A stretch of DNA of 64,000 nucleotides from Phallusia mammillata. Its lineage: Eukaryota. The notes beneath the pieces are model-generated. The model ran no database searches. It was not told the DNA's origin and saw only the letters and a program-made list of their open reading frames with translations. A program made the position numbers and the translations under genes. The DNA is taken from NCBI GenBank assembly GCA_965637545.1, contig OZ281496.1:16306001-16370000 (forward strand), in the 5' to 3' direction. Of this stretch, positions 12,050-64,000 are shown piece by piece (positions within the stretch are counted from its first letter, which is position 1; each line of letters starts with the position of its first letter).

Positions 12050-12840
12050 TCCGTTCCTCAAGCTGCCGCAAATAAACGGTCAGTCCATCATCGGAGAGGT
12101 GAACCTTGTCGTACCACAGCTCGGGTGTTTGGTACAGCGAGGTCCTAATACGTGACTTTGCTTCTACTTGCAGCCTCACGAATTGCCAGGTTTACAAGGG
12201 GAATAAAGCCACGCTTTTGCTGAATTCCACAACAGTATACCTATATTTACAAGATTTAATAAAAAGCGAAAACAAAAACTACATCCCAGTGTCCCAATGG
12301 CACGACAAAAACTGAAACACGGTACATTATTAAGTTACGGAACCCTGACCAAATGTGCAGGAATACAGACCTATACAATACAGAGATTTTGTATCCATGG
12401 AGGTTTAAAAGGCGTTTACTGGAGATGAAGTTAATTAGCAACTTGGTTAACGAAACCGGTTATACAAGAAAAAACGACCAAGGTACAAAAAGAATATGTT
12501 GTCCATTCCACACTGACCTTTGCATGGGTGTACAACGATTTGGTGCAGTTGATCAGCCGAAGAATATCCCCGAAAATCTTTCTGACCAACCAACGCCACT
12601 TGTTTCTAACTGTAAACGCTTCCCTTGGCCAAATCCACGACGTCGACGTTTCGAATTGGGGGACGATTTTGCAACTCCGTGATTCCGTGTTCAATGGTAC
12701 CACCAGGGATGGTAACAGCTTCAAAACGAAAAACAAAAAGGTTTTACCACAGGACAAACTAAGTCCGGTGCGTTGTTGTCCGAAACGAACAGTACGCAGC
12801 TCTTCTCTTCTTTTCTGGTTCCAGGCACCAGCCATTTAAC
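12050..12840 (-). pseudogene. SGNH/GDSL hydrolase-like gene, copy 1 (spliced, degenerate)
   Basis: Block I-like VLFVSDNNA, block II-like AVTIPGG, VDVVDLAKG, DILRLINCTKSLYTHAK followed by a GT donor, VNLAIREAASRSKVTY, and block V-like YDKVHLSDDG. Confidence 0.65.
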
Positions 12841-12844
12841 CTCC

Positions 12845-13345
12845 CTATCGCAAATCATGTCATTGTCTGAAAATAAATTGGACGCAGTAATCCAGTGATT
12901 GCCCTGGACATTTATGATTTGAAAATTTTTTGCTGAGGTGTGTGAATAGGGGGAAATGTGTTCGTACAAACTGAAAACACCAAACAACTTTGCAAGCCTC
13001 CAATATAAGGAAACTGGTGAGAAAGAATGTACATTGCTGAATGTTTCATGTTTACATCCAATAAGTCATTTGACGTTAATGAAAATTGTGTTTCCCACTT
13101 TGTTGCACAACAGCGCTGTGCTAAACTCGATTGTTCGTGATCACATAAACATTTTGTTAATTGACACTAATTTTTCTTCCTTATTTCGCTGTTCTGTAGA
13201 GCCTATGTATTCCCACAGAGACACTGCCGGTGCCGGAGCTTTGAGCCTACCGTTTTTGCCACTTTCCTTAATTCTGTTTGTTTCGCTTCCTCTTTTCTCC
13301 TATCACAATCCATATTTGTACTCGCGAACCAACCCAAGATGAGTG
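12845..13345 (-). pseudogene. Second, truncated copy of the Ulp1-like region
   Basis: Nucleotide homology to 10520-11035 (HLGLVREYK...QIINVQGNHWITASNLFSD); stops abruptly at the start of SGNH copy 1. Confidence 0.75.
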
Positions 13346-13379
13346 GTGGTGTGTGTGAGGTCAGTGCTGGTTTTGGTTT

Positions 13380-13890
13380 GCTCCTCGGTGTCGGCTGTGG
13401 TCATTCCTCAAGCTGCCGCAAATAAAAGTTGGTCCATCATCAGAGAGGTAGAAGCTCTGGTGAGTTTGGCACAGCGAGGCCCAAATACGTGACTTAGCTT
13501 CGACTTGCAGTCTAACGAATTGCCAGGTTTACGTCGGGAATAAAACCACGCTGGAGATGAAGTTAATTAGCAGTTCGGTTACCGAAACAACCTATACACG
13601 AAAAACCCATCCAAATAGTCCATGTACAAACAGAATGTGTTCATTTTACACTGACCTTTGCACGCGGGGGTACAACGTGTTGGTGCAGTTGATCAACCTA
13701 AAGATCGAGCGACATCAAAAAGTGTCCCCTTTAGGAAAGGAGAGCCACAATAAATACTACGGTACAGGATACTTACTTAGGAAACACCAAATCCAGGGCA
13801 CTTCAGGATTCAAAATCCATTGCTGCTTTGAATTTTCATAATTATTTTACTTTGTGGGAACAGTCATAAAGTTTGCACATGTGTTTGCTA
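13380..13890 (-). pseudogene. SGNH-like gene, copy 2
   Basis: Homologous to 12050-12560 and an inverted near-copy of 63525-64000. Confidence 0.65.
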
Positions 13891-13977: not shown

Positions 13978-14714
13978 TATTTTTTTGACAACCGCCCTGC
14001 GGCCACTATGGAAAAATGTAGAATTTCTTTAAGGATTCTCCGTCTTCAACATCAGTTATATAAAACCTCCAGAAACTAACTGCTATATTTTCGATTCTCA
14101 TAACTTTTATTTTACAAAAATGGAGTCGACAATTTCTATGGCACTTAAAGGTTTGTTATTTTGGCATAGAAACGATTCTTCGAATCCGACAGGTGCCATT
14201 TTGATTTCATCAAGCAAGTTATGTGTCATTAGACCAATTCAAATCCTATAGGTTCTGTAATGCGTTCCTCTAACCGAATTTTTAACAATGTCAGTTCGTT
14301 GCAAATGTCATGCAACCACAAATAGACAAGAAAACATCCATGTCAGATAATTACTTTTTTCACTGAATCTGGGATTCTTCCCGGCCAACCAACGCCACTG
14401 GGTTCCGACTACAAACGGGTGTGTTTAAACTACAACCTCAACATTTCAAATTGGGGTATGAAAGCCGGTTTACACGACACGCGTTACTCGCAAATTAGGT
14501 GTTTGTTTTATTATACTGCGCGATACGCGACTAACGCCTGAAAAGCGTGTCGCGTCGTAATCTTCCAACGCGTGATGAGCGAACAATTTGCGCCTGTCGC
14601 CTTGTGCGCCTGATGGTTGCCAGCTTTGTGTACTGTCGATTGGTTCGTGTTAAGTGTCTTTAATGTAGCTTCTGATCATCTTTTGATATATAGGTAATAT
14701 GGATTTAGTTCAAG

Positions 14715-15930
14715 ATGAACAGTTTATTTTGGAAGTTCAAAATACCCAAATTTATGTAACATCACACTTCATTCATATCGTGACAGAAAAAAGCGGGAGA
14801 AAAGTTGGGAAGACATTGCAAAGGCTTTTACTATTCAGGGTATAATAAAACTTATTTGTAGGTTCACTGAGCCACAAACTTTTGGAAAAATACAGATAAA
14901 AATTTATTTTCCAGACTCTGACAGAGTAAAGCAATGTATATCTAGATGGAAATCGATTAGAGACAAATATGTAAGAGAGAAAAAGAAGTTGGAAGAAAGT
15001 TTTGAAAGTAGTGCAGCAGCATCACATACAGCAATTTGGCCAATGTTTAATATTTTGGACTTTATTTCTCCTTATGTTCAGCCAAGAAGGTAGCATTTGT
15101 AAACATGTTTAAAATATTTGACATAAAATTTCTGTACACTTTAGAACATCATCAAACATCAACTTTAGCCAGGCTGAAAATAATGAGATAGAAGTTGGGT
15201 CAGACTTTGTCATATTAGAAGACAATACTGGCAGTCCCAGTAGTGAGAACACAGGTGAGGGCCTGAAGACAGATTTGACGTCACCCCAGTTCATACAGCA
15301 GACAATGTTAAAAGTTTTGCAAAATGTGTTTTTGTACATATGTATACACCTTAGTAGGAAATAACTACCTCATCAGTGTAAAATGTTCCATCACATACCA
15401 ACACATATCTACTGTTTTTGTCTACACATGTTTCTTCACTTAAGATTCTAGTATGAGACCAAAAAAGAGAAGACATGATGATGTTGCTGAAAAACTACTT
15501 GAAGTGTTAAAAGAGCCCCCTCCAGGTATGAATATTGGATGGACAAACATATTAAAAGAGTGTAATTTAGTCAAATACTTTTTATATTTATTCAAACAAT
15601 TATTATTTATAATAACCATATTCATATGTATTGACATATTATTGCTGAAAAGTTGTAATTGCAGTTTTATATATAGATAAGTTATTTATAAATGAATCAG
15701 TACATATACTTGCTGCACAATTTCAAAGTTTTGTTTGAATGCTGTCACCATGAATTGTGGAAATATTGTGTTGCAAACTGACTGATATATATTTATTTTA
15801 TTTAGTGATTCACTATGATGAAGATGAACTGTTTATGTTAAGCTGTGTGCCCCAATTGAAGCAACTAACTACACAGCAAAAAATAGTGTTAAGATAAAGA
15901 TCTTGCAATTTTTTTCTGACATTCAATAAA
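14715..15930 (+). pseudogene. Harbinger MADF-BESS DNA-binding protein (about 5 exons, frameshift in exon 1)
   Basis: DEQFILEVQ..YRDRKKREKSWEDIAK; RWKSIRDKYVREKK..WPMFNILDFI; C-terminal DEDELFMLSCVPQLKQL (BESS-like); GT-AG introns. Confidence 0.8.
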
Positions 15931-16125
15931 CACAATCGATTTTGACAGTTGTTTTTTATTTGAAAAGACATATTTACACAAGCATTCCAGACTTTTCTGT
16001 TTAAATATCTGCAATACTATTTCGGGTTAGGGAGAAATAGGTACACGCATACCAGGGTTAGGGAGAAATAGGTACACGCATATTGTAGTTTGCATAGTTA
16101 TCAAAGGTCCAACCATTATTAAAAG

Positions 16126-16341
16126 TTAATCAAAAAGTTCTGGGGACACTTGAAAATCTTTTGGACGCTCCGCTCTCATTTCCTGCACCAGAGTGTGAAA
16201 TTCACCTTGAAATAAAAACTGCTTACAAAAACCTAAATGTATGATTACCACATAACAAACCTTTTTCATTTGTGCGTTGCAACATAGAATGCACCCAAAG
16301 TTGTCTTTCTTTTCTTTTGGAAAGCAAGTAGCAGCAAGCAA
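16126..16341 (-). pseudogene. Harbinger transposase N-terminal remnant
   Basis: QGEFHTLVQEMRAE...SPELFD matches the HARBI1-like N-terminal region. Confidence 0.7.
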
Positions 16342-16799
16342 TGACTTTACGACGGCGATGTTGCCATCCTACTAAATTATTGCTTTGTACATTTTGTACC
16401 CTGTTTGCCGTGGCTGCAGATGTTTACAAAAGAAAACAATCAGGTCGTCATACTTAATTGATTTTTGTGTTCTCGTCGTGTAAACACCCTTCGCATACGA
16501 CGCGCAGACCATCACCGTGTAAACCGGCCTTGACTTTGCAACTCCGGGATTCAATGTTTAATGGTAACAGCTGCAAAATCGAGAAAACACAGCTCTTTCT
16601 TTGTTTGGAAACCAGCCACTTAACCTGCTTGCCGAAGACGCTGAACGGATATTTCAATGCTGCATTCTCTGTCCACGAGGCCACGTTATATAAACACAAA
16701 AGTAAACATGTCAAGCGTTTGAAAAAAAACATAGAACGCGAGACAAAGGTAAATTACAACAGTCTTTCACAACTAAAGTTTTAGTGACGATCACGCTAA

Positions 16800-18070
16800 T
16801 GCCCTCATACGTAAAACGATGATATTACAAAAACGTAACTCTTTCTGCACCTGGTGTGATACAGTATGAGTGCTACATTAGATTGCTATTGCCACTGACT
16901 ATATCATTTGATGGCTACACACGATCTTATTTGTGCCTCCTCCGGAGTCAAACTTCCATGGAGACCACATATGTATTTTTACTTTTTATTAAGTTACAAT
17001 AATGTGTACCTCCCGCGGTTGTGCGTTTGTGTCCCAGTGCCTCAGTTAACGAACATTTTGTATACTTTCAACTGAAAGTATCTTACATTTGGACTTATAG
17101 CTTTGTGCAAAAAAAAAACATCGACAAAATACTATTCCATCTCGTTTTTGAATCCAACATTAACTCTACGTTTTTTCCATGCTCTTCTTGAACATACCTC
17201 CGCAAAATTTGATTTTGTAAAGAAGATTTTCGAAAATATCTTGAAATATTTCTTGCTTTGGAAATTACCATAGACACATTTCATCATTATTTAACTCATT
17301 AGAAATATCAATTTTACCTATTTTATTTTTTAAATTCAACAGCAGTACTGAAATCGTTATTTCCAAGTTCCTCTTCTTATAGATCAAAGGATTCTTCTAC
17401 ACTTTGCAATTCAAGTTCATTGTCGCATTCTTGCTATACAAATCGCTGTTCACATGGAATAACTACCGTATATACTCGCCTATAGGTCGCGCACTATTAG
17501 TTTTGTGTTTAAAAAGTGTAATTTAGAGTTGACTCGCACATAAGTCGCACTGAAAATCTAGGGATTTGAAAGGCCCTTAGCCTAGCTTTTTTTGCATAAA
17601 TAACCGGTGCAATTGGTTGTTTTTTACCATTGAACTGCATTGCATTGAAACCGAAAAACTATCTTTTCTCAACAAAGCGGGAAAATCCAACGCAAGCTGA
17701 GCTGACGCATGTGCGTGTGCGCTCATGAAACTGTCTTGCATTGGTATGTGCGTGCACGAGCGCATGCACCCGTATTCGATAGCACATTTCCACTACAATT
17801 CGCGATTTGCACTTATGTCTCGCGTATAGGTCGCACCTATATTTTTTTTGAATATAAGTAAAAAAGTTGCGACATATACGCGAGTATGTACGGTATTCTG
17901 AGTTTGATCATCACAGGCGAACAATCAGTTACACAACCCAACACATGTTTTTTTCAATGACACATTACATTCATTTAATTTTCTCTCCACTATTTCAGCA
18001 GCAGCTTTAGCGGGCAAAGAACCGAAAATTTTTACCATTTCTAAAATTACAGCTGTTGGACATTGCCTCA
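16800..18070 (-). pseudogene. hAT (Ac-like) transposase remnant, interrupted by a pogo MITE
   Basis: MVKIFGSLPAKAAAEIVERKLNE..KKHVLGCVTD; ISRYFRKS..LDSKTRWNS. Confidence 0.75.
17466..17893. mobile_element. pogo/Tigger-like MITE, 428 bp
   Basis: TIRs CCGTA(T/C)ATACTCGC(C/G)TATA; TA on both sides. Confidence 0.9.
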
Positions 18071-18391
18071 CCAATCTTTTGGATGAAAGTCTTGCCAGAA
18101 TACCCTGACCTTGCCATAAACGCATTCAAAGCTTTGCTACCATGTACGACATCGTATTTATGCGAGTCTGGACTTTCTGTGATGGCAGCAACAAAGACCA
18201 AACCGCGAAACAGACTGGACGTGAACGACACATTGCGGAAGTCATTAAGTTTAATTACTCCTGCGTGGGTGCGCCTCGGTGCGACAAAACAAGCTCAACG
18301 TTTGCAGGTTTTGAAGGGCGGTCCGTGACAAAATTTTACTTTCAAAACCAGTCCGCAGGTTTCGCAGTGCAAAAATGGTTGCCAACCCCTG
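18070..18391 (+). mobile_element. hAT Charlie/Buster 3' fragment
   Basis: FWMKVLPEYPDLA..SYLCESGLSVMAATKTKPRNRLDV dimerisation domain; terminus GGTTGCCAACCCCTG followed by GTCTAGCA. Confidence 0.85.
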
Positions 18392-21124
18392 GTCTAGCAA
18401 ACTTCCTCCAGTGGCAGATGTGTTTCATAATATACACTAGTACCTTAGCAGTAATGTTTATGATTAAATTACTTTTCAAGCCCGTGAATAGTGTTCCTAA
18501 GTATATTGAAATCATTTTCCAAAAAATTACGGCCGGTCATTTTTTAGTGCTTACCAAGGTTTCTACAATTGCACGTACACTTTTAGGTTTGAAACCGTCT
18601 GTGTACAGTCCTTTGATGGCAGTGACCCTGCTTAAAGCAACATATCCCATACCTTGTGTAAAAAAATCCCATATTGACAACAATTGTATCCTCAGTGCTT
18701 CCTGGAATTTTGTGTACTGTGCATGCCCAAGACAGTTGATGATGATATTGGTGCCGCACATAAGTTTTCCTTCCTTTATTTGGTGGCTTGCTTGTGGTTT
18801 AATCAAAACTGCTGAAGAAGAACAATTATTTAAATTTTGTGACCTGTTTGTAGTTGATCCAACTGAAGGGTTATCAAAAACAACTGCAATGTTATCGGGT
18901 AGATAAAACCGTTTGTGGCCATCGATAATTTTTTCCACTGTTCCCATAACTCCATTGAAAGTCCATCTGCAACATCAATGTCAGCAATTATCATTATTCT
19001 AGCACCAACAGCAACATCTATTTTATCTGGTTGTGATGGGTGGTCTTTTTTACTGTACTTTATCGGTACTCTGCTGCGGTAATGTTGGCATTTGTTATTT
19101 TTTTACCACATCGACCGCATGCAAAGTTGTGATTGATCCTTCGAGTTTGCACAGCATATTTTAATTATGTTTGTCGACTTTTGCATTTTCGCCATACAAA
19201 TGGAGAGCATCTTTCGGATAGTCAGAGTGCCACGTAATCATTCGCTGTTGCAATTTTGTTTTGTCATCTATTGAAATTTGATCCTTTTTTGTTTTACTCG
19301 TAATCTATTTAGGAATTGAACAAAACCTTCATCTTTCTTGTGTCTCATGATTTGATGTAACTCAATTAGTTGAAATTGAGCCCACAAATCAGGGTGGAAG
19401 GATGTTTTAATAATGAAGTGCCACACACTGGAGGAATTTGGAAAAAATCACCAACAGCAAAAATAGAAATGTTGCCAAATGATAAGTGTGGGTCTGCTGG
19501 GCGTAGAATCTGGTCAAGTTTTTGGCTGATGTGCATCATTAGGTTTTGATTGAAACCTGCAGAAAAAAATCATGAATGAATAAAAATGATACAAACAGAC
19601 ATCATAATTCACATATCTTTGGAAGCTTACCTCATCTATGACAAAAAATTTTATATGTGCCAGTTTCACTCGAAGTGATATGAGTTTTTCCTCAGAGAGT
19701 TGCTTATACTGCTTGTTTGGTTCACAATGCTCAAAGCAGAATGAATAGTAGTTCCATCTTTGTGAGATCAATAATTACGGCTTCGAGTTTGTAATAAACA
19801 CTTACCAATGTTGAAAGCAGCCCTTCCACTGAATGCCGTCAAAAACACCATTGCATCATATGGTGTGTCAGAAAAACTACTTAATAACTGGCTTGCCTCA
19901 TGATGGATGTACTTTACCAGCAAACTTTTTCGTCACATAATTTGTTAAATTTGGCCATTTCTTTTTAACGAACTGAAAAGGTTTGTAAAATTGTGACAGG
20001 GTGCAACTTTTGCATGACAAATATTAACCTAACACAGTTTGCAGCAGTTGGAACAAACACAACCGTCCTTGAAGATTCTTTAAGTGTGCCGGGGCTCAAC
20101 GTGCATGTGTGTGCAGTGCCCACAATGAAAAACAAGGCCCTGGAAGCTAACTATTGGTTTTGGAAATATTCTGCAGCGTCAGCTGAGCTTCTTGAGCTAT
20201 GTTATTCTTTACTCGGAAGCTTATTGTTTCTTCTGATTCTCGTGGCTCGTATCGGTCGTCTGCAGTAGCGAGTAATTTCATTATTACGATTCTTAGCGCT
20301 TGCTGAATGGAGGCGACATGATCCACAAAAGATCAATTTTCTGGTTACTCAACACACACCAAGTCTCATTTATCTCAAGGAAATCATACGATGGAAAGAG
20401 AGAGATCAACGATAAACCATTGGCTTTCAAACTGATACTCGTTTTTCGTGCGATCATTTTAGAACAGTACCTTCTTTTACTCACATCAGCTCACATATTG
20501 CTTGTTGCTTGTTTTGAGTTAAACGCTTGCAAAGATATGCAGCACTGCAAAGGATTGCACAACTATTTCGAAACACCCGGTTTACGCAACAGCCTGTCTT
20601 ATGGTCAGGCTGTTGGAACATATCAGGAAGACGGGAACATGTAACAACGACACTGAATATGTACTTCCAATAGCAGCATATAATTTCCATGGAACGAAAA
20701 GTCATGCTTGCAAAGTTAAAATTTTCATTACTTAGTGCTTAACCAAACCAAAGTGCCAAAATTGATGGTTTAAAAGCACGTGACCGCTACAAGTGACAAA
20801 CCGGTTGCCCGGTATGCGGATTCCATCAAACTGATTTCACGGTGTGTTAGATATTTGTTTCAGATCAATCGAAGTTCATGAAATGCATCCACATTTCCTT
20901 CCAGTGCTTCCTTTTTGTGCCTGTTTAATTAAATTTCCAAATTCTCTTTCACTTTTTGATACATAAAGTACATACATGATACAGCCATAAGGATCTAATA
21001 CAAACTGAATATTCATACTGGCACTCCATGAACGGAGTAAATGTGGGTTGTATGAATTAACTCAGCACTCTGCTGGGTTTTGGATTACAATACAATGTGC
21101 GTGACGATACTCCGGAAATGAAAG

Positions 21125-21410
21125 TGTAGCGGCTGATCACTTGCTAGATCTAGTCCTTAATTGAAGTCCTTTTTGTGCACAATTATATCCGTAATGACTT
21201 TGTATTGGTACAAAAGTTAAGTTGAGTTACAGTGATGATGATATTAAAGTGATGTAGCATCGTTCGAAACAACATGTATATATACGTACAATTGTCAACG
21301 ACAAACAGTCAACAAAAGGTGACAACATATGGTATACAGCTGTGTGGAATTAAATGCTTGAGGTGATTGATTTACTTGACAAATACGTTTGTACAGATCA
21401 TAATCCCACA
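21125..21410 (-). repeat. LTR (3' LTR in element orientation)
   Basis: Direct repeat of 22590-22875. Confidence 0.92.
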
Positions 21411-22589
21411 TAGGTATCCCCCCTGACAAGTGTTTTCTGTATAATGGTACAAATTACGATTTGGGTAAATTTGTTAAAAGTTCGACTTTTCACATCTCCA
21501 AACACATAAGCGACCGCCACCAAACAGTTTTTTCCAATGACCATTGCGCGCTATTCGTTCTTCGGACAGCATAGTCTTTCAAATTGTTCCACGACTTGTA
21601 CATGCTTGATCAGTGTCTTCATTGGTGTACAGAGGTCGACATGATTGTTCGTTTTCTCAAGCGCGGTCATTTCTTCAGCGGTGCTTGCTTGTGTATTGGT
21701 GAATGTTACTCGGTCTTGTCCGGATGAAAAACTTTAAAAACAAAAATATAAACAGCAAAATTGCGGCAAACGTATTGTGATAACTATTAAGTGTAGGTGA
21801 AGAGGTATGTCAAAAAATTAGTTATCGGGCCAATCAAGAAATTATGCGTGTGTACGTTGATAACGGTTTGCAAAGTTCTCTACAACCCTAATACTAGGCT
21901 CAACTCGCTAGCTTTGAGACATCACGGATTTGCTTAGCGAGGAGATGACGTTCCCTAATGCAAGGATTTACAGACCGTGGGATCAGACAATAAAAATAAA
22001 TGAATGCAATACAATATGGCAGCCTTGCGACCTGCTAAATACGATTTCCCACATAATCGCAACCTCAGTGAGTCGAGGGTTTCTAAAGATGACATACCGG
22101 CGAGTTTCATTGATCGCTCGGTGTGTGCGTTTTGCTCATAAACAGCACATTAAGTAGATTGTTATTCCACCGTATCAAACACATACGTTACATATTTCTT
22201 CGTAGAAGTTATAGTTTAGTTGACATCTTACAACTACCATACACTAAAAAGTTATCAAAACTTGAGACAATTACGCAATATATTAAACTTTGACATATCC
22301 CAAGTTTGGGCTAGGCGTTAAATCTTAAAAGTGTAAATAAATGTAACATAACACAAAGTTAGGCGTAGCTTGGTAATATAACGTTCATCAATGTACAAAC
22401 CTAACTCTGAGCGTTTTTCACAAACAACATCGTCATCGACGTTCTGGTCCAGTTTGCTTTGTTCGCTTCTTTTTGCTTGTTTTCCATTTCCGTGGCGATT
22501 TTTGCTACTTCAGTTCACGTCGCTGCTTGGTTGGTTGGTTGAAGTAGGTTGAAGTATCAAAGTATCAGAAGTCACCATTTCACCATTCA

Positions 22590-22875
22590 TGTAGCGGCTG
22601 ATCACTTGCTAGATCTAATCCTTAATTGAAGTCCTTTTTGTGCACAATTATATCCGTAATGACTTTGTATTGGTACAAAAGTTAAGTTGAGTTACAGTGA
22701 TGATGATATTAAAGTGATGTAGCATCGTTCGAAACAACATGTATATATATGTACAATTGTCAACGACAAACAGTCAACAAAAGGTGACAACATATGGTAT
22801 ACAGCTGTGTGGAATTAAATGCTTGAGGTGATTGATTTACTTGACAAATACGTTTGTACAGATCATAATCCCACA
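22590..22875 (-). repeat. LTR (5' LTR in element orientation)
   Basis: Direct repeat of 21125-21410. Confidence 0.92.
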
Positions 22876-25800
22876 AAAGTTCAGCATCCTGTGAAATTTA
22901 AACCAGTTAATACATGCAAATGAGAAATACTTGCAATACCTGGAGGGCTTCAGCATTCTTTTCTTCAGTTTTTTGTTCTAGTAAAATTGGTGTGGATATA
23001 AATGTTTTAGAACTGATAGGACGGGGAAACCTAAAAAAACATTTCGATAAAGTTATCAAACACATACAACATTTACATTATACCTGCATACTTTGCCACC
23101 GTTTTGGCATGATTTGGAATGCTTTTTACTGTGTGTCTGTAAAATGGTTTGGTCACCATTTCATGCAATTCTGGGTCATCATTTTGGTCAGGAATTTTAC
23201 ATGTTATAAAATCGAAAACTTCTTGGTCATTATTTTTATTAAATTTTCGGGCATCTAACCCAGAACAGACCATTAATATGAGGCCAACCTAGTTGAAAGG
23301 AAAAAAATGCAAAGGAGCAATTATGTCATTAAGGAAATGGTGGACTCTTTGGTCAAACATTTTGGTTGCTGTGACTGGGTTGTTTGCGATTAGCTTACAA
23401 GAGGTTTCCCAATTTAGTGGCGGAACAGATTTGTTTTGTCGAGTGCATATTGCTTCCAAAATTTCAGGCCATCTACGATCCGCTGCAGAAAAACTACAAA
23501 ACAGGGTTGGAATTCCAAGCTCTCTTAGTTGTGCAAATAATTCGTTGACTGTATGATCTCAATATGAAGAACTGCCACGTAGGGATTTCAGAGATTTGTA
23601 TGCTTCATCTTTTCCAAGTATTTTCTGCAATGTATTTTCCCCTAGTAAAACATCTTTAGTTATTTTTTTCCCAACTGAAGTCAAAGTGGTGTTTTTACGC
23701 ATAGTAATTGACATTGAAGAGTTTACAGTCAATGCATCATTGGACAGGAAGCAAAACGATTATCCATCCAAAAAAAGTCGACTGTTAAGGTAGCAGTTAA
23801 ATGATAATTTTTTAATCTATTCTGTTTAAAAATATTTTTTTCCTGAAAGAAATAATCCTTTAAAACATTGTCCTTCGGCTTCGACTTCTGGTTTATTTCC
23901 TAAGCATAATATTTGATCGTTGGTGTCAAATAAATATTGTGCAGGGTCAGCAGGAAGAAGGCATGAAAGAGGTGCAGAGGTGTGAGAAATTTTATCTGAA
24001 CAAAAAGGTGTCTATCGTTTTCAAAGAAAAAAAATTTAATTTTTTTTTTTCAAACAATTACCAGAAGGTTTAGTTGAAGTAACTATTTTGTGGACTTTCG
24101 CAAACCTGCACTGTCATCATCAAAATCTTCTAGAAGCTTTTTTGCGACATTATCTGAAATGTCTAACTCAGTGTCAAAGAGTGGTTGACCTGCCAAGCAC
24201 AAAAAAATTAAGTTTAAGCATGATAAAGTTTATGTTTCCACCAAATTACCTTTGTTAATTTCATCAAATTCAACTTTGTTGATGCGAATGTCTGCAAACA
24301 AATACGTAACAAATGGCCCCATTTAACACTCAATTTTGGGGGAAAAAACTGCTTTGTTGACTATTGAGATTATTTGTCCAATTATAATGCATGTTTGGGT
24401 AGCAAGCTTCCTTAACACTACATGAGAAAAACAGCTCACTGATTTTTCACAAATTAACATTTTTAAAAAGGAAAGAACTTGTACCTTTATAGTGGATGTT
24501 TGTCGATTTCAAAGTTTCCAGTGCAGCACAATTTTTTTGTGGATCAACTTGTTGATATAAGTGATGACCCTTGTACTGAAGTTTCCGTTTTAGTTTGACT
24601 TTAATTAGAGTGTTAGTGGTTGCAGGTCTTGGAAGTTCCGAAGCAGTCTTTTCAATGTTAGAGTTGACACAAACTACTGAACCATAAACACCTTTCTGTG
24701 ACCCTTTTAGCAAAGCAACAATCTTCATAAATGGCACAATGGGAGAAATAAGGTGACGTTCCAAAGTATTTAGATGTTTAAGTTCAGGTGGCACTACTTC
24801 TAATTCCAAACCATTTCCTGGCTTGAAGTGGCATATCTCCTTTTCTTAGATGTCTGCTGAATATGAAGCAAATCCATTGTTGAACATCAACCACTAAATC
24901 TAAAGCAGATAATTTTGAATTGTTAGGGTAATTTAGACAGTGGTATGTTTTGACCTGTTTGATAAAAAAATAATCTGTTACATATACAGCAAGGATACTT
25001 AGGAAGTTGTTTACAGTGATCGCGGAAAATGGGAATGCGGTTTTGTGCTTCTTCGAGTTTTCTATTATTTTTTTCATGCGCCACTTTGCTTCTTCCAAGC
25101 AGTTTTTTTCTGAAACACAAATCTTGTTGATATTTAGTTTTAATCCTTTGTGCAGTTCTCGATTTTACTAATTTTCGATATTTGTCATCTGTATGGTATT
25201 TGGGTTTGACATGCTGGGATGACATCGCTATTTTTGACCTCCTGAATTTTTCATTTTCAGCGTAAAGTTTTTTTGCTGATTGCAGCTGCCTTCTTTTTGA
25301 TGAATGATCTAAACCAGTGGTTCCCAAGGGCCCATGGGCGTAGATTGACAAGAAACACCCACTAAAAGTCATTTTCAACACAATTGTACACATGCATGAG
25401 AGGTCGCCACAGGATCACCTTCAAAATATATATCGAGCCACCAAACCAGAACCGTAGTAATCGCCAAGCAAACATGTTGTGTCGTACGACACAACCTGTT
25501 GGAAGTATTTGTCGACGATGTAGTATTGATTGCGAGTTGAAGGAGACATAACCAACTTAAAGAGCTGTGTTTACCCGATTAGGGCGAGCGCGGTTTTTGT
25601 TGAACTCTAATTATGGAAACAGGTTTGCAAAGAAACAGAATCAATCGGTAAACGTTTAAGAATATATATTTCGCCTATTGGCATCGTTATCATACTATGT
25701 ATTCTCACTGCTACCAGTCTGAGTTAATTTTGTACTTCCGCGGGCGAGCTGGGGCATTGGTGATATCTGCGAGAATGGGTCGTTTGGTTGGTGTTTTCAT

Positions 25801-32129: not shown

Positions 32130-32130
32130 C

Positions 32131-32676: not shown

Positions 32677-32679
32677 GTT

Positions 32680-45889: not shown

Positions 45890-45891
45890 TC

Positions 45892-52689: not shown

Positions 52690-53036
52690 TTTTGCACACT
52701 TGAGTATAAAAATGAAAACATTTAAACACCAAAATACCTAAACTGACTAACGTAATTGGCGTCGCAGAACGTTAACAACCACCGACTACAAACAAGCTCC
52801 AAACCAAGTTGGTACGAGGTGACGTCACATGGCGTTTGAGCTCAGTGACAAAATATCCGCAAGGTGTCAGTGTTTTTAGATTTAAAACGTAAATATTTGA
52901 CTAGTAACTTCGATTTTTGTGGTTTTAAATCTGAAATCGTGTTTATAAAAATACGACAAACAACATATTAAAAAATAATTTTCCGGTGCCGGGGCTCTTT
53001 AAGGTAAATGAATTTAGAGTTTTCAATTGATAAGAA

Positions 53037-54666
53037 ATGGACACAAACAAGGCTCAATTTTACCTCTTGTGTTGCAAATACTTGCTGCAAGTATACTCAG
53101 TTTTTTCTTATTTTCAAAAACGTCAAAGGTCAAGAAGGGTATTGTTTGCAGTTTTATCAAAAACAAAATCTAATCAGACAGAGAAAAAGTTAAAAAGAAT
53201 TTGGATGTTACCAAGGTACTATGCATTTCACTGCCGACTTATCTTAAGTTTCAGGTTTAAAATTTTTGTATTGCTTCAGATCACAAGATTTTTGGGAAAA
53301 AAATGTCAGGAATTTTGATGATTCCCAGTGGATAAAACATTTTAGAATGCGCAAAGCTGACTTTGAACGATTAGTTGGATTGGTCTGGAATGAAATGAAA
53401 CCTGGTTAGTTGACAATTCTTTTTTTTTTTTGTTTTTTTTTCAGTACTTTTGTATTTTTCAGACGAATTTGCTGTTAGACAACCAATTGATACAAAAAAA
53501 CGTGTTGCCATTGGTTTATACAAGCTTGCATCCTCTGCTGAGTACAGAACCATAGGTGAACTGTTTGGAGTTAGTGAAGCTTCTGTACATAACTGTCTAT
53601 TGCGGTAAGTTTTGAGAATTATATTCTTGTCTAAAATAGCTAAAAACTTGCTTTTGTATCAGGTCATGTCTAAAACAACTAAAAACTTGCTTTTGTATCA
53701 GGTTGTGTAATGCCCTCGTGAAACAGATAACAAATCACATATTTATGCCTGGCAATGAAGAGGCCCAAGAAATAGCCAGAAGATTCGAGGAAAAGTCACA
53801 CTTTCCTCAGGTATGAGAAAATATGTTTTAAATTTGCAAGGTGTATATAATTGCTCTTTGTTCCTAGGTAATGGGCTGTATTGATGGTAGCCACATAGCA
53901 GTAACTGCTCCAGTTAAAGGAAAAAAGGATTACACTAACAGAAAAGGTTGGGATTCTTTGGTTCTGCAGGGTGTTGTGGATGACATGTACCGGTAAGCAA
54001 AGTTATGTTTTATTTGTATACATGAGGTCACTCGATTTTTTTCAGTTTCAGAAACATTTCTGTAAAAATGCCAGGAAGTTGCCACGATGCTACAGTCTTC
54101 AAGAACTCTGGATTATTTAAAAATTCCAATATGCTTCCACAGGTTGGTATTTGATACACATGGTGTTTTAGTGATAAACTGAGTTTTAAATGTTGTTTTT
54201 TTGTTCAAAGGTCCCGATTGTAATTGAGGGATTTCGTGTGCCATTACTAATCCTTGGTGATCCAGCATACCCACTGCTGTCCTGGTTAATTAAGCCATTT
54301 ATTGGTTCAAATCTTTCAGCAGAAAAGGAATCTTTCAACTGCTATCACAGCAGTGCACGAATAGCAGTTGAAAATGCATTTGGAAAACTAAAGGCACGAT
54401 GGCGTATTTTAAGAAAAATTGAGTGTGATATAACTTTTGCTCCTAAAATCATTGGGGCTTGCTGCATATTACATAATATGTGTGAAGATTTAAATGTGCC
54501 CATTGCTGATACTGTGGGTCGACTGCAATTCACTACTGTTGTGCCTCAGCAGCCAGTTAGTCGTCCATGTGATGCTGCAGACCAAGATGGTGTACTATGT
54601 AGAAATTCTTTGCTGTCACATGTTGTAAAATCTTTGCCATTGCGTGAATCTAGCCGCTTCCTTTAA
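53037..54666 (+). CDS. Harbinger DDE transposase, 7 exons (53037-53215, 53280-53404, 53463-53604, 53702-53810, 53868-53992, 54046-54142, 54211-54666), 410 aa, apparently intact
   Basis: HFRM, RVAIGLYKLA, GCIDGSHI, PGSCHDA, LGDPAYPL, AVENAFGKLKARWR, CCILHN; all introns GT-AG, spliced length 1233 nt with no internal stop. Confidence 0.9.
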
Positions 54667-54721
54667 ATGACCTGCTTTGTTATGTTAAAAAATGCTGTAC
54701 ACATACATTGTTTTGTGAATT

Positions 54722-56261
54722 TTATTCTTCAGTTATAGTTGAGTCGCTGAGTACCTCAACAACCATACACTTAGTAAGTTCAGCCACACCACTTGCGAAG
54801 TCACTTCTTATTTCGGTCATTATTTCTCTCATTAACTGGCGATCCTTTTCACAATTGTCATTGTAAACCTTCACAAATGTAGAGAAGGATGCATCTTCAG
54901 ATGATTCTGGAACACACACACATACAAATACTGACATAGTGTAGGTTTTGCAAAACTAGTTAATAACAATGCACTCACGATTTGTACGGCGTTTTTTTCG
55001 TGGTGGCTGTTTGGTTCTGGAGTTTGGCTCTGGATCTAAAAGTAGAAACAACCGAGTTTAAAAGTTAAGTTTTAAGATTTGTGTTTAACTGCTACCTGCA
55101 CTCTGTGAAGTCTGTGGTTCTGCAGCAGGGGTATCATTACTTGCTGCAAAATAAACATAGGAAATTTTAATAACTGAAAATCAAGATGTACTGTTAAGCA
55201 ATACCTTCAGGTTCAGGTGTGCCGATTCCTGTTTCTTCAACTACTGTATTATCTGCATTTATTAAGAAAGTATAAGACTAAACGGAGTTACCAAGTATCC
55301 CTAACTCATGCAGTAGAATTTACATGTAATGTTTAGAAGGTAATATACATCAATAAATGTGTATCAGCTTGAAGTCTTACCATCTGGATCTTTACTTGGT
55401 CCGGCAAGTGAATCCACCCCACTGCTACACATTGCCTGAATAGTTAAAAAAATCCTCTTTTATTTGGACTTTGCCTGCCTATACACGAGTATTACTGTAA
55501 TAAAGTATCCACCACATTAAAATGTACCGTAAAGGTACTGCAATGTAATTAAACTTTAGCTTGCAGCAACAAAAATGTAATGTATAAAAAAATATGAACC
55601 TTTGCTGTTGGTCTGTGTTGAAACAGTGAGTTCATTTTTGTGTAAAACTCCCACTGGGTTCCTCTATTAGAAGCACCAGAAGTGTTTAAAGTTACTTTGA
55701 TTTTATTGTATGCTTTTTTGAGATTTTTCCATTTTTCACGAATTTGCTCCCTTGAGTAAAAAAGGAAAGGCTTTAAAAGGAATATAAGGAGGAAACTAAA
55801 CATCATGCATAGAACAAATCACTTTGTCTACTTGCTTCTTAACTATTGCATGTAGTTCAATTTAAAGAATTTGGGAGATTAACAAGAAAAATTCTAATCT
55901 TAAACATAACTGCAATAATTTTGTTAATGCATTCTAAATCAATCGCAAAACATAAAACCCAACAGACAAGCTCAATTAATGACACTTGATTAAGTTAAAG
56001 GCTCAGTCTAACTTTTAAGTTTTTCTGTCTCCTTTTCTGTCTCCTGGGGCTTTGCATTTAATTGTTTTATTTTTGTTATACTAACCATGTGTAAAACATA
56101 TTAAACTGCTCCATTTGTTTAGCTAAATTTTGAAAAATAACTTTGTTTCTTTGTGTTCTTCCATCAATTTTTTGAAGAACCCTGCTTTCCTGCACTAAAT
56201 CTATCAGGCAATTGATGTCACTTGAGCTCCAGGTTGCTCTTTTTTGGCTTTCAGTATCCAT
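54722..56261 (-). CDS. Harbinger Myb/SANT-like (trihelix) DNA-binding protein, multi-exon; middle exons not fully resolved
   Basis: TWSSSDINCLIDL..RNKVIFQNLAKQM; REQIREKWKNLKKAY..WEFYTKMNSLF; acidic C-terminal exon. Confidence 0.75.
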
Positions 56262-56581
56262 TATTAATTGCTACAACCTGTATCTGACCCCTAAAAATAC
56301 ACATTTAGATTCACCACCAAATCACTAACCCGGTATCTATGCGTGTAACCTACCGTCGACGGGCGGGTTATCGTTGCCGCCTGCTAGCCCGCTAAAAATC
56401 GGTCAACCGTAGCGACGCAAACCGTGCGTCAAAATATGCGGGTTAACTTAGCGAGTTAACTCGGTTAATTTGTCCATGTAAAGAGGCTTAATGACTGTCG
56501 GGTGGCATTAATGAGTTGTGGGAACATTTGTGCCGGACTGCGCGAGAGTTTGAAGAAAATCTCCTTTTGAAAACGGGGTTG

Positions 56582-56912
56582 TGTCACAAATATTCTAGAA
56601 CGCCCTATGATAATATCCCACGTCCCAATTACCACGCATCACGGGTATTTTCTGTACGTCTAGAGTCTTTCGTTGCAGGCGCTATTGTGTTGTCATTGTT
56701 CTACTGTGCTATAATTTTATCGTGTCGCCGTTGCCCGTTGCAGGGTTCATTGTTTTATCTAAAGGAAATCGTCATAGCGAGTTAACGCCTTTTTCTGAAT
56801 AAATGTAAAAGGAAAGGTTTCTTGCCGATCAAAGTACACGAGCGTTAGCTGTTAAGGAACTTCCGATAGTCAGTCCTATCTTTTGCGTACCCGTGAAAAC
56901 GGGAACGTGACA
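56582..56912 (+). repeat. 3' LTR (331 bp; about 130-bp deletion and 10-bp insertion relative to the 5' LTR)
   Basis: TGTCACAAATATTC...GAACGTGACA, followed by AAAAC. Confidence 0.92.
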
Positions 56913-59799
56913 AAAACCTTCGCCTCAATTTTGTTTTGATTTTGCAGCAGTGAGCATTCCCGGAGGAATTGTTGAGCTGCAAGATCGGGCCCCCGTTCCT
57001 CGGGTCGAAATCCAGGTCAAATTAGGACAAACCCCGGAGGACTGATTCGGAGAATCACAGATGATATTAATCGGCTGGTTGAGAAGACCAAATTCCTGTT
57101 TCCTCGTGCCAAGGGTATATTTGTATCAATTTTAGTTATGATGCCAAACCTTTTGATGCGCATTAAAGTTTATTTGGCGATTACACAATTTGTTTTTGGC
57201 AGGTGTTTTGCTCTGGCATACTCCCACTTCATTGGTACTGCTTTAGTTATTGGTAATCAAAGACATCCTTACTCACCACAATAAAGTTGAAAATTACCAT
57301 TCTTTGAACCACTTTTGTTATGTTTACCTGCGAAGTGTGCTGCGGCAGAAAATTTTAGTTCTTTAATGTGCCCCATGCTTAAAAAGTTTGAGAACCACTG
57401 CCAAAAAAACCTTATACAATGAGTTGTACACAACATGTGTTTAGGTATAAAGTTGTCATTGTTTCAAACATATATAAAAATCACCCTGATGTCACCACCT
57501 AGAAACTGGAAAAGCACAGATCTTACCGTATTGTTATAACGTTTCAACGTTTTCTTTGATGTAAATTATACCAAATGATGTTTTGCACTTTTCCTAAGAT
57601 TTGAAATTTCGATTTCAACTGTTGTCCACGTTTCAATAAAATCTTGTAATGTTTCTTGATGTTCTTATGCTACTTTATCAAATAAACAAATTCTAAACTG
57701 TCCGCAAATTAGGAAATGCAAACATTTTGAGGTTATATTGCAAAATGCTTTAAAAACAGCATAAATGACAGGCAAAAATTGTTTGTCGCATAGCGCGGCG
57801 TGCCGATTTTGCTGAGTCAGACGTCTTTTTTCTTACGATTTTGTCGCATTCTCTCGTATTTGGTTCAGGCCTTAGCGAGGCGTTTGCGAGGACACTTCGT
57901 AATACCAAATACGTCACTATATGCAGTCGGCACAAATGTGCACTTAACATTACAAGGGATATGTCACTTCACACCACAACTGATACGATTCATGCTGCAA
58001 TAAATGTTACCGTTGCATTTCGCCATCTACGATAAAAAATCGACCTTGCAAAATGCTTCGATGTGATTTTCGTTGAAAGTCCTGACGTGGCCCTATTAGA
58101 TCAGGCCGAAGCAGAATGGGCTCAAGTTGACAGGTGCTTCAATAAACATCCAGAAAATGCTATTGCCCCAAATCCGCTAATATACTTCCTGTTGTATTTG
58201 TTGTACTAACGATTGCTCGGATTCTATTCTTTTGTTGCTGCCTATATGCCATTGCCAGGTGTTTCGTCTCTTTTTATCTGCATCGTTGTGCCCAAAGCGT
58301 CGACGTGCGCGCCTCACAGATAAGACGTGACCTGTAGTTCGGTCAGCTTGTCAAACCCGTTTGAACGCGGCAGTGTACAATGTATCCTGTGTTTTTACTT
58401 TTATTCTTTTTATTGATGTTTTATTTTGTGGTTTTATAGGAACTGAAGATGCCATTAGGCGAAATATATATTCCAAGATTTTATCGACTGATTTCGTTAC
58501 TTGGAAAATACTTTCCATTCTTAGTTATTGAATTAAATAAACGGTGATTGTCGATGACCATGCTGTCTGTTTAAATACTCTCAATTTAGAAAGAAAATAC
58601 ACAAATAGTCATGGCCCCCCTAGACAAGTTTAACATGATGAAGCTTATCGCAAAAAGCAAATATGGCGAATTACTACAAGCGTAAGGTCGTCGCTCCACC
58701 TCAAAGACAAGATGCCAGCTCTAAACAAGTTTAAAAGGGAATCAACAAGATGCAAAATTCTCTCCCACTCCAATCCTACTTGGACGTGCTGCGGTCGTCA
58801 TAAACAAGTTGTACATTAGACACAACTTCCATGCTCTTGTGGCTTTTTAACACTTTATTACTACTGTTATTTAGCGTTATCATCCCTTGCTGTGAGAGCA
58901 ATTTTAGCAAACGCAGCATAGAAAACCTGTTCGAACATATATTCCTATGCTTGAAAAATGCTATTCTTAAACATGGAGATAATGAATCGTAACAGGTGAC
59001 AACCATTCTGTCTCGCTCGCCAACATTGGCGTTCATTATATTACGATTCAGGCAGCGCGCTTTGTCAAAAAGACGGAACTGTTTATGAGGTTTATCAACA
59101 ACATATTTTATCTCTGTTTTGGCAATGACAATTTCAGAAAAACTTTTAGTGGTGTGAAGAGCGTGTTTGCATCCCATGGTTTGAAAATAATCTCACAACT
59201 ATATAACAACCGCCCAAACAGAGGGCCATGATTTATTTATTTCTTGATGTGAACCACGCCATCAACCGAAAAGATAAATTCAAGTTCAAAACAATAGACT
59301 ATGTGAAAGATACCGGACCATGCCAAACGGATGGTTCGATCACCCTCCTTCCTTTTTTAAATCGATAATACGGGGAGAAGCAAAACGACTACCAACCTAA
59401 ACTTCCCCCTTCCTTCTAATGCACGTCTTTGGCTAAGTACAGTTGGAAACCTTTTTTGATTCCAACCCAGTGTTTAGTGAGCATGTTCGTTTTACACATA
59501 CCATTTTGGCACTTGGACCGAAACAAATCAAAAAGGTAAGTCACTATATGATGAATCGCGAAGTTTACTTTCCTTACTCACTTAAACTCTTTAAATCTAA
59601 CGAAGTTCAATGTTTTATTCCGACTCCCAATAACCGTAAACGAGCGCAATGTTGTATGAGATGAAATCGCTCATGTGCAACCATTGTGAATGTAGCTGAA
59701 AGTCTTTTAAAGAAAAAGTATATATCAAACGTAGATCAAAAAGTCTTTAAATGTTCCTGAATATTCCTCACCTATTTGCAGTTATATTTTGAATTAGCA

Positions 59800-60940: not shown

Positions 60941-61961
60941 TACAACTGATCAATGTTTAATAACGAGACGTATATGCACAAAATGTAACTGCGTTTAACA
61001 ATCTGCTCACTTGACAATTGATTATGTTGTAGTGTTTTGTTGTAGGTTTGTTGTTAATCAGAGTATACGTGCGGGACGTGAAATCTGGTAAAACTCTGCG
61101 CAAATCCAGCCTTTCGCTTGACGTTGGTTCGAAAATAATGCTGATTAGAGATCGCAAATAGAGAGGAATGCTTTGTAGAATCTGGAAGTTGTAGATCCGT
61201 AATGGCATGTTTAATTGTAACTCCGTGTTCTACAAACGAAACAGTGCGAAAAATGTCTATAACTAGTGACTAACCTTTTCTCGGGCCTGAACCGTTGCTC
61301 TGACAACTGTAACATAGTGGGAAACCGTTGCCATAAGGCACAGATTAAATCAATATTTATGCCGCAAACAATTCACTTATTTGATCCGCATCTTTGTGTA
61401 TGGCTTTTCTCCAGCCTGGCATGTAGCTGAAACAATTTATGTGCCTGTGCGATTTCGGACCTTGTTACTTCTTTGTCTTCCATATCTAAGCTGCTTCAAA
61501 CAGTTTGATAGCTCGTCTTATCATATTTGTGACTGTCAAACTAGCACAGCAACCAATATTTATGAGTGCACTGACCCGTTACCTGTAGTTTGACAAAAGG
61601 GGATGACGACTTTGTTTAGAAGTCATTCTCTCCGGCAGACTTCTTGTAAAGTTTTTGTGCAAGCTGAAACTTCAAACTTCGATTGAAGAACGAAAAAGTT
61701 TTGATTTATGTTCATGTTTTTCATTTTTGTGTGCTGAAGTTAAACCTCACATAAAGTAAGTAATACCGTTTGGCAACAAATGGCGATTTCATAGTTTGCG
61801 TGTGTTTATTTTTAGCCCATTTCAAAACAAAATTGGCAAAACACATATCTGCGACACGAATGATGTTTAGAAGATGAGCCCCACTTTAAGAAGGTGGTTT
61901 CGTAAAAAGAACAGCAATGATTTATTGACTGTCCCACGGATCAATCCTCTAGCACAGTGTG

Positions 61962-62010
61962 CAGTGGCGGCTCGTGCCTAAAATTACTGGGGGTGCTGCT
62001 CCGAGACTGT
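61962..62010 (+). mobile_element. hAT-like left terminus
   Basis: CAGTGGCGGCTCGTG start with GC-rich subterminal sequence; partner end not found in the window. Confidence 0.45.
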
Positions 62011-63524
62011 GTATTTTCCATGGAAAATTGACACCGTAAAACACGTGACTTTGCCACACAATTTAATAATTTCCGAAAGGTGGCGCACCGAAACAATGGC
62101 GCCTAAATGGCGTATTATATTGGAACCCGTTTAATTGTGTTTTGTTACTTTCGTGTGACAAAAATATCTAATATTAATGGCGTATTAAAACGAAAAACAT
62201 ACCAAACTTACCAGTTTAAGGTAAAGTGTGGCTTGTTACTTTTGGTTGAAAAAATATTTATGGAAAATTTTGTATTTCACAACTGTACGATCCAAAGCAT
62301 AAGTATGCGGGAGGGTGAGGGAAAGGTAAATGTGAAATATCTATTAAAGGATGGAAAAGTTCAATATGAATAATTTAAAATATTGTGTTTGTTGCAGAGA
62401 AAACGTTACAACAAAAAAAGAGAGAAACGGTAAGATTAAAGTTTTATCGTCAAGTAAAACAGTTTTTGTGTATTGCATAGTTCCAAGTGTTAATATACAT
62501 CAATTAATTTTTAGTTTTATCCCGTACCAAAGATTCCATGAGCTGCAAAGGTTAGTGAATTTTTCACAATTGGTTTTATTGGAAAGTATGTTTTATATTT
62601 TATGCCATACTTTTATTTTTAAGGTTGAAAAAGGTTCCCCCAACAACTAAGTAAACAAGATATAATCATTTTTCATGCAAATCGTGTAATGTATTATTTG
62701 TTCACAGATGGTTGCCCAGGGAAGTTTTTTTTTCAAGAAGTAAGGCCTATTTTTTTTAATGTGTGTCTCTTGTGTATACAGCTAATGTGACACTATTGTT
62801 TTTTTTGCAGAACTTAGAACAAATTAATGAAAATGAAACTGTAAGTTTGTGTTGATGTCTAATTTAATTTAATGTTGTAATGGTACCACTAATGACACTA
62901 TTGTGTTTTGAAAGATTGCAGAAAAAGAAAATGAAACTGTAAGTTTGTGTTGATGTTTAATTTAATGTTGTAATGGTACCACTAATGACACTATTGTGTT
63001 TTTGTAGAATGCTGAACAGTAAAAAGATTTGAAAGTATGCATAGTACATGCACCCTATTACAATTGTATTTTTGTTATTGACCTGTTTTTGTGCTTCACA
63101 GAAAAAAGAAATACAAGTTTTGGAAATTGCTTATGGTGTTATTCTTTTAGGTTCATGCGAAAGAATTAACACTTACTAGCACAAAACTACATGGTAGTTG
63201 ATGACAGTTTAGGGCAGGGATAGTTAACTTTTTTTGCAATTGCTAATGAAATAATATGAGAATTCCAACCACATCCATGAGGCTCTCATTTGTGATCGTT
63301 GGCATTTTTGTTAACCCAGACGCCTCGCCAGTAGCCCTATGAAACTGGGAGTTTGTAGAACAACCACACCTGTTGAGCGTTCAAGCCTTTAGGTCTTATT
63401 ACCAGCCTAGGCTTTTGGTTAACCACACCTTTGGAGCCTTCAAGACTGCAGCAGACTTCTTGGTTAACCACACCGATAAGGCGTTCAAGCAAAAATGCTT
63501 ATTGGTTAACCACACTCAGGCGTT

Positions 63525-64000
63525 TAACACATGTGCAAACTTTATGACTGTTCCCACAAAGTAAAATAATTATGAAAATTTCAAAGAAGCAATGGATTTT
63601 GCAATCCTGAAGTGCCCTGGATTTAGCGTTTCCTAAGTAAGTATCCTGTACCGTAGTATTTATTGTGGCTCTCCTTCCCTAAAGGGGACACTTTTTGATG
63701 TCACTCGATCTTTAGGTTGATCAACTGCACCAACACGTTGTACCCCCGCGTGTAAAGGTCAGTGTAAAATGAACACATTCTGTTTGTGCATGGACTATTT
63801 GGATGGTTTTTTCGTGTATAGGTTGTTTCGGTAACCGAACTGACGTAAACCTGGCAATTCGTTAAACTGCAAGTCGAAGCAAAGTCACGTATTTGGGCCT
63901 CGCTGTGCCAAACTCACCAGAGCTTCCACCTCTCTGATGATGGACCAACTGTTAATTGCGGCAGCTTGAGGAATAACCACAGCCGACACCGAGGAGCAAA
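63525..64000 (+). pseudogene. SGNH-like gene, copy 5 (runs off the window end)
   Basis: Inverted near-copy of 13380-13890; DFAILKCPG, IFRLINCTNTLYPRVK followed by a GT donor, VNLAIR, HLSDDG. Confidence 0.65.

Follow-up and report, generated by a model that had tools for sequence, protein, structure and literature searches.

Five decayed SGNH esterase copies in Phallusia mammillata: possible relics of a Mutator-related DNA transposon

SGNH esterases recur as accessory genes in unrelated mobile elements, where their role is unsettled. GDSL esterases occur in the first open reading frame (ORF1) of long interspersed nuclear elements (LINEs) of the CR1, L2 and RTEX groups, in rotifer long terminal repeat (LTR) elements and in Athena elements (PMC5408684), and texim is a multicopy, intron-containing SGNH gene that lies beside Helitrons in several fish (PMC4021074). 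Among DNA transposons, the transposases of Ginger1 and of animal Mutator elements carry C-terminal Ulp1 and PHD domains (PMC2836005), and Rehavkus combines a PHD finger with a 9-bp target-site duplication (TSD) and tandem repeats near its ends (PMC6446971; 10.1101/2024.12.02.626372). Here we analyse a stretch of 64,000 nucleotides from Phallusia mammillata (contig OZ281496.1, positions 16,306,001 to 16,370,000; hereafter the window) that holds five fragments of an SGNH-like gene. We put the chances at about even that they are the dead and rearranged remains of a family of DNA transposons, the likeliest candidate being a Mutator-related cut-and-paste element of Rehavkus/FB-NOF-like type.

Self-comparison of the window recovers SGNH-like sequence at all five places given in a preliminary description of this DNA; the five are real and homologous, and whole-window scans found no sixth. 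Counted from the first nucleotide of the window, they are:

12045–12846 (−): SGNH copy 1, a pseudogene with a nearly full domain, carrying frameshifts and stops
13377–13885 (−): SGNH copy 2, the 3' half (about 13705–13404) plus 180 bp of non-SGNH 5' sequence in common with copy 5
14250–14461 (−): SGNH copy 3, part after a Harbinger insertion, internally deleted, with its own 3' end at 14294–14250
16531–16623 (−): SGNH copy 3, portion ahead of the Harbinger, with a deletion of block I
44737–44855 (+): SGNH copy 4, part before an LTR element, block-I Asp-Ser intact
56918–57230 (+): SGNH copy 4 continued, with block II, a frameshift, an intron and a few codons of the next exon
63526–64000 (+): SGNH copy 5, the 3' half, cut by the window end

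The family was identified through a single intact homologue. A phmmer search of 1.84 billion representative proteins with copy 1 read through its breaks (the last ~30 residues of the query being off frame) returned three matches, two of them spurious repeats and one real, XP_039273931.1 (LOC120347882) of the ascidian Styela clava. This protein of 714 residues has an intact SGNH domain near its N-terminus with the Ser, Gly, Asn and His catalytic positions all present. It matches Pfam Lipase_GDSL_2 at E 2.5e-6 (28.5 bits, under the cut-off of 32.9), with an atlas feature score of 0.95 and a TM of about 0.8 to SGNH proteins. The SGNH membership of the window copies is established through this homologue; their own read-through gave no Pfam match. 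The Styela protein forms a single-member cluster. Word-index protein searches returned only the protein itself or nothing, an atlas search with its C-terminus gave nothing above 0.77, PDB searches came back empty, and a single-sequence structure model (mean predicted local distance difference test, pLDDT, 36.5) was not used.

The copies were scored against the Styela SGNH domain by frameshift-aware alignment, with shuffled sequences as the reference. Copy 1 reaches 152 over residues 9–176 of the 181-residue query (shuffle maximum 40; 0/60 as good), copy 4 with its LTR element skipped reaches 110 (0/60), and copy 3 with its Harbinger skipped reaches 39, a marginal value (0/60; shuffle maximum 37). 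Copies 2 and 5 do not match the domain significantly when aligned to it directly (58/60 and 28/60 shuffles as good), and align to copy 1 with scores of 150 and 117 (0/40 shuffles as good in each case). Only the 3' parts of the extents first assigned to copies 2 and 5 are SGNH: about 180 bp at the 5' end is common to both and not detectably SGNH, and its interpretation as a diverged SGNH 5' half was rejected (0/6 tests significant). Further 5' of copy 5, at 62400–63525 (+), lies a run of apparent micro-exons with a five-fold short repeat, the end of which is also present at copy 2. Because copy 3 has its own 3' end (0/500 protein shuffles and 0/1000 DNA shuffles as good), five separate copies are counted, and the alternative of a single gene split into copies 3 and 2 is rejected.

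None of the copies is intact. The earlier picture of five intron-containing genes holds for the intron, which copies 1 and 4 have at one and the same codon, and fails for whole genes, all five being partial pseudogenes. The block-I Asp-Ser is intact in copy 4, as previously reported, and in no other copy; copy 1 has Asn in place of the Ser, and copies 2, 3 and 5 lack block I. The catalytic Gly is present in copies 1 and 4 and the catalytic Asn in no copy, whereas the block-V Asp-x-x-His is kept in copy 1, copy 5 has the His alone, and no block V was found further downstream in copy 4. The catalytic Ser, Gly, Asn and His therefore occur together in none of the five.

In copy 1 the exon at 12846–12518 is followed by an interruption of 277 nt with GT-AG ends (12517–12241) and a next exon from 12240. 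In copy 4 the interruption spans 57115–57202 (88 nt), with its donor one base off frame. The donor context, once placed at or next to the same position in copies 1, 4 and 5, is common to copies 1, 2 and 5 and lies one base further on in copy 4. Beyond the interruption, copies 1 and 4 have similar codons, and the Styela protein shows no break at that point. We take the interruption, as read from these alignments, to be a real ancestral intron. A junction test that did not demand GT-AG ends was only moderately sharp: the best GT-AG pair ranked 34/2397 in copy 1, and in copy 4 an in-frame join requires a one-base shift.

Two of the copies are split by later insertions, the excision of which restores them as had been proposed:

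14462–16530: non-autonomous Harbinger in copy 3, TSD TCA, with a MADF/Myb ORF at 14719–15090
44856–56912 (+): young, pol-less Gypsy-type LTR element with nested insertions in copy 4, TSD AAAAC

The terminal inverted repeats (TIRs) of the Harbinger match at 14/15 bases, and its empty site keeps the frame of copy 3 open. The frame of copy 4 is restored with one TSD copy kept, and not with two or none. The insertion in copy 4 was first described as a 12-kb Gypsy element; an LTR element it is, with LTRs identical at 320/321 aligned bases, but it includes other elements, and no pol domain was detected in a Pfam scan (which covered 149/170 stop-to-stop ORFs of at least 75 residues in the window). 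Although very young, it holds a 572-bp miniature inverted-repeat transposable element (8-bp TSD) inside its 5' LTR, a Harbinger at 45938–49382 with a TAA TSD and a transposase frame of 293 residues, a second Harbinger remnant at 54190–55818, and a THAP fragment. Its gag-like frame lies at 49277–50176.

The history of the copies can be followed from their divergence, which spans 53–97% identity in both orientations. Copies 1 and 4 are ~63% identical, with a ratio of nonsynonymous to synonymous differences (pN/pS) of 0.44 in protein-guided and 0.49–0.55 in DNA-guided alignment (bootstrap 0–1/1000); neutral simulations gave 0.78–0.84, and 1/120 were as low as observed. By either alignment method, these ratios demonstrate, at the level of the sequences, that the lineages of copies 1 and 4 diverged under purifying selection. 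Copies 2 and 5, by contrast, are 97% identical over 473 aligned bases, have a stop codon and deletions in common, and give a pN/pS of 1.17, near neutrality, and were therefore duplicated as dead DNA. The remaining pairs are weak or method-dependent: for copies 1 and 2, the protein-guided value of 0.45 rose to 0.59–0.66 in DNA-guided alignment and lost significance (bootstrap 74–138/1000), the signal between copies 1 and 5 is borderline (13–44/1000), and that between copies 1 and 3 is never significant. Selection between copies 1 and 4, together with the dead copying of copies 2 and 5, points to at least two lineages that were once functional, followed by later copying of broken DNA.

Copying at the DNA level, as opposed to retrocopying, is supported on three counts: copies that are only ~63% identical retain an intron at an identical codon position, copies 2 and 5 were copied after death, and one downstream segment is common to copies 1 and 2. 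The preliminary description had suggested a mobile or locally amplifying DNA-level unit. Its DNA-level part is supported, the rejoined flanks of copies 3 and 4 aligning significantly with the family, if marginally for copy 3, and the reading as DNA-level mobility is likely right; mobility itself, in the form of termini and target duplications, was not seen within the window, and the carriers discussed below are candidates. The local density of five copies, offered as a sign of mobility, is less surprising than it appeared, since copies 3, 2 and 1 form one co-oriented, head-to-tail cluster in transposon debris.

The repeated unit is larger than the gene, a point missed in the earlier account, as was the Helentron beside copy 3. 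The order on the minus strand is a decayed Helentron, copy 3, copy 2, segment B, copy 1, a low-complexity tail, a 158-residue frame, segment A and a PHD finger. The parts of this tail, and a repeat array near copy 4, are:

11340–12044 (−): low-complexity tail rich in Thr, Ser and Pro that follows copy 1 and shows splice-like signals, seen in sequence and translation
11258–11326 (−): 23-residue stretch with a weak match to Styela residues 636–658 (9/23 identical)
10760–11233 (−): open frame of 158 residues, interpreted as the C-terminus of a transposase-like protein, no database match
10220–10756 (−): segment A, protease-like remnant with the motif order His-Trp, Asp, Gln...Cys
10048–10260 (−): PHD finger, end of the unit (Pfam PF00628, E 1.7e-7, above cut-off)
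12839–13346 (−): segment B, between copies 2 and 1, a partial copy of 11024–10510, 87% identical to segment A over 442 aligned bases
43795–44655 (+): tandem repeats, about five, of 170–183 bp, ending 80 bp 5' of copy 4

Downstream of both copy 1 and copy 2, and on their strand, lies one common segment (nhmmer E 3e-66). The SGNH parts of the two copies are 83–87% identical in DNA alignment and their tail parts, A and B, 87%; because both parts diverged alike, SGNH and tail look copied as one unit. The internal deletions of the two units differ. The junction of segment B with copy 1 shows 3–4 nt of microhomology, and the joins look deletion-like. By its motif order, segment A is putatively Ulp1/SENP-like, and the stretch at 11326–11258 and the 158-residue frame may resemble the two ends of NOF/Rehavkus-type transposases.

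The tail may also be linked to the Styela protein. With the region chosen by eye, the stretch at 11326–11258 beat 300/300 shuffles in alignment to Styela residues 636–658. When all non-SGNH Styela sequence served as the query, the same stretch, which lies 0.8 kb to the 3' side of copy 1, scored highest among 122 real 1040-nt tiles, with 8/200 shuffles as good. We regard this sequence match as a weak lead. A segment within the copy 1 intron, 12330–12268 (−), scores 46 against the frame at 11332–11237 as the window's top match, by chance or as a relic, and such scores call for caution.

In the proposed mechanism, the gene of the family would begin with the intron-containing SGNH esterase domain and end in an Ulp1-like protease and a PHD finger, a tail that would belong to a DDE transposase with its catalytic core deleted. 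The core is read as deleted because the space between copy 1 and the PHD finger is too short for a whole one, and no Pfam or PDB match to a DDE transposase was found in that space. Two or more old subfamilies, one represented by copy 4 and another by copies 1, 2 and 5, would have inserted into this transposon-rich region, where microhomology deletions and additional insertions then broke them up. The enzyme may have served the element and not the host, perhaps in lipid or membrane handling if the analogy with the esterases of retrotransposons applies. This reading may be favoured by the 183-bp tandem array just 5' of copy 4, Rehavkus having subterminal tandem repeats, although the array stands beside copy 4 only and has no other copy or partner array in the window. 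It is favoured too by the Styela order of SGNH domain, long linker and then a stretch matching the 3' side of copy 1, and by the PHD finger, a feature of the Rehavkus transposase ORF (PMC6446971).

Several observations weigh against it. Window scans found a DDE domain, a TIR or an 8–9-bp target duplication for no copy; flank comparisons and TIR/TSD scans likewise yielded no long TIRs and no 9-bp TSD, several ends being visibly deleted or beyond the window. Neither the Ulp1 identity of segment A nor the NOF/Rehavkus resemblance found support in Pfam, PDB, protein searches or the atlas. The Styela C-terminal match, first spotted by eye, scores 47, inside the range of 36–55 for chance top matches in whole-window scans, and pairwise BLASTP did not report it and favoured another place. 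Selection between copy 1 and copies 2 or 3 is not significant by DNA alignment. Copies 3, 4 and 5 have no Ulp1/PHD tail of their own inside the window, copy 5 being cut by its end. Peptidase_C48, finally, is also an accessory domain of Helitrons (PMC11417382). The Gypsy-like integrase with GPY/F that precedes Ulp1/PHD in Ginger1 was not seen either: no rve or H2C2 match lies near the unit, and the only one in the window is in a Gypsy pol remnant (33647–34213). The wider proposal, that ascidian-type genomes hold a Rehavkus/FB-NOF-like family in which a single multi-exon gene joins an N-terminal active SGNH esterase to a DDE transposase with C-terminal Ulp1 and PHD domains, is more tentative, and we think it somewhat less likely than not. 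No SGNH domain is listed for a DDE transposon in the portion of the literature searched, only partly with that aim; Repbase, outside that search, may describe one.

Because a decayed Helentron abuts copy 3, the principal competing explanation is that the SGNH gene is Helentron (HLE2) cargo like fish texim, and that rolling-circle transposition made the cluster of copies 3, 2 and 1 and carried the Ulp1/PHD sequence along:

16850–25414 (−): decayed Helentron (HLE2) with DUF6570, Helitron_like_N and a PIF1 fragment, with nested insertions

Its Pfam matches stand at E 2.2e-16 and 1.3e-10, with PIF1 below cut-off (E 7.8e-4); endonuclease-like remnants were seen by eye and not confirmed by Pfam. A near-perfect 30-nt hairpin at 25471–25500 (z −3.1; 3/200 shuffles), ~60 bp from the Rep remnant on its 5' side, is a candidate Helitron-type terminus, and a 290-bp direct repeat (21125–21415 and 22590–22880, 99% identical) lies inside the remnant. 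We consider this explanation unlikely. The DUF6570-bearing element does end in the same orientation as copy 3, ~230 bp to its 5' side, texim offers a precedent, Peptidase_C48 is among the domains stably captured by Helitrons with PHD in the same supplementary table (PMC11417382), and the lack of a target duplication at any copy is what Helitrons would predict. The arrangement, however, is the reverse of that in fish, where the Helitron coding region lies 3' of texim (PMC4021074); here it is 5' of SGNH, and at no copy inside the window does it lie 3'. Only 1/5 copies abuts a Helentron, no Helentron piece having been found near copies 4 or 5. For Oikopleura, amphioxus and sea urchin, the accessible text on texim reports no association with Helitrons (PMC4021074), the portion of the HELIANO supplement available contains neither a Lipase_GDSL nor an SGNH row (PMC11417382), and the Styela domain searches, though insensitive, returned no fish texim protein.

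That the copies are pseudogenes of a host SGNH family, spread by tandem or segmental duplication in a low-recombination, transposon-rich region with the Ulp1/PHD remnant copied by accident, seems to us quite unlikely. The tandem, co-oriented placement of copies 3, 2 and 1 would fit such an origin, as would the neutral divergence of segment B and of copies 2 and 5, the lack of termini, the single-member cluster of the Styela protein and the free-standing texim-like genes reported in invertebrate chordates (PMC4021074). It accounts less well for five dead copies of very different ages in both orientations amid transposon debris, for the weak match by which Styela and copy 1 both connect the SGNH domain, in the same order, to a downstream domain, and for a region in which no host gene domain appears among the Pfam matches of the 149/170 ORFs scanned. 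Very improbable is an origin from CR1/L2/RTEX LINE ORF1 esterases, in which what looks like an intron would be coding or would have been inserted later. Some LINE ORF1 proteins are known to contain an SGNH domain (PMC5408684) and LINE remnants occur within the window, but no copy is followed by an endonuclease or reverse transcriptase, and the CR1/L2-type LINE of the window has its own, non-esterase ORF1. Nothing found corresponds to a known LINE ORF1 esterase with a coding 'intron'. Copies 1 and 4 are interrupted at one and the same codon by stretches of unrelated length with GT/AG ends, and the Styela protein has no such interruption, an argument limited by the moderate sharpness of the junction test.

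The window as a whole is AT-rich, animal-type DNA, largely transposon debris, with LINE, Gypsy, pogo, Harbinger, THAP and Helitron domains among its ORFs. Two related CR1/L2-type LINE remnants lie at 163–2935 (−) and 30650–32130 (+), the first with an ORF1 that carries Baculo_FP domains. Between the two SGNH clusters are a Gypsy pol remnant at 32586–34216 (+), a pogo-type transposase at 37835–38845 (−) and an L1/Tx1-like LINE remnant at 41350–43170 (+). The frames at 26161–27460 (−) and 58779–59192 (−), which gave no Pfam match, may be pieces of a Polinton/Maverick polymerase and packaging ATPase. The sequence at 25607–25685 matches 58448–58524 in inverse orientation.

Transposons that carry an esterase are already known; what may be new is the possible cut-and-paste carrier, which has perhaps not been clearly described before. 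Esterases are usually proposed to act on membranes or lipids for retrotransposon particles, which leaves DNA transposons uncovered. A cut-and-paste carrier, if real, would widen the pattern and offer a new system in which to test for a contribution of the esterase to transposition. The elements that have recruited esterases would then comprise LINEs, LTR and Penelope-like elements, Helitrons and DDE transposons, so the use of these enzymes could not depend on an RNA particle, and supposedly free-standing texim-like genes of invertebrates may also be transposon parts. If the carrier were instead a Helentron, the texim–Helitron link would extend beyond fish, contrary to the claim of a fish-specific capture. 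Because the copies are dead, the window is a pointer to the family and not a working system.

In comparison with described systems, the esterases of LINE, LTR and Athena elements share with the window copies the fold and the status of a mobile-element accessory gene, but are intronless retroelement ORFs beside a reverse transcriptase (PMC5408684). The likeness to texim and teximY (Tomaszkiewicz 2014, PMC4021074) is one of described features: both sets are multicopy and intron-containing, spread at the DNA level and lie beside a Helitron, and the window copies, as in texim, have no linked reverse transcriptase. By contrast, texim has its Helitron on the 3' side, whereas the Helentron here is 5' of one copy only; no Ulp1/PHD tail is reported in the accessible text on texim, and texim copies are expressed whereas those of the window are dead. 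The accessible portions of PMC12273014, PMC13359780 and 10.1101/2021.09.26.461848 offered no additional point of comparison. Mutator/Rehavkus and Ginger1 transposases resemble the copy 1 unit in having a C-terminal protease-like segment followed by a PHD finger, and in having introns, and Rehavkus may resemble the surroundings of copy 4 in its tandem repeats near an end. They differ in that the accessible descriptions mention no SGNH domain (PMC2836005, PMC6446971), and in the DDE core, TIR and TSD, none of which was found for the unit. Because formal membership fails on the features tested, we describe the unit as working like Mutator/Rehavkus and Helentron elements and file it under neither. 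The Styela protein, uncharacterised and, unlike the window copies, intact, aligns with copy 1 over nearly the whole length of the SGNH domain and shares with copy 4 the unusual Ser-Asp-Ser block I; its SGNH domain near the N-terminus, its long linker and its weak collinear C-terminal match correspond to the layout of the copy 1 unit.

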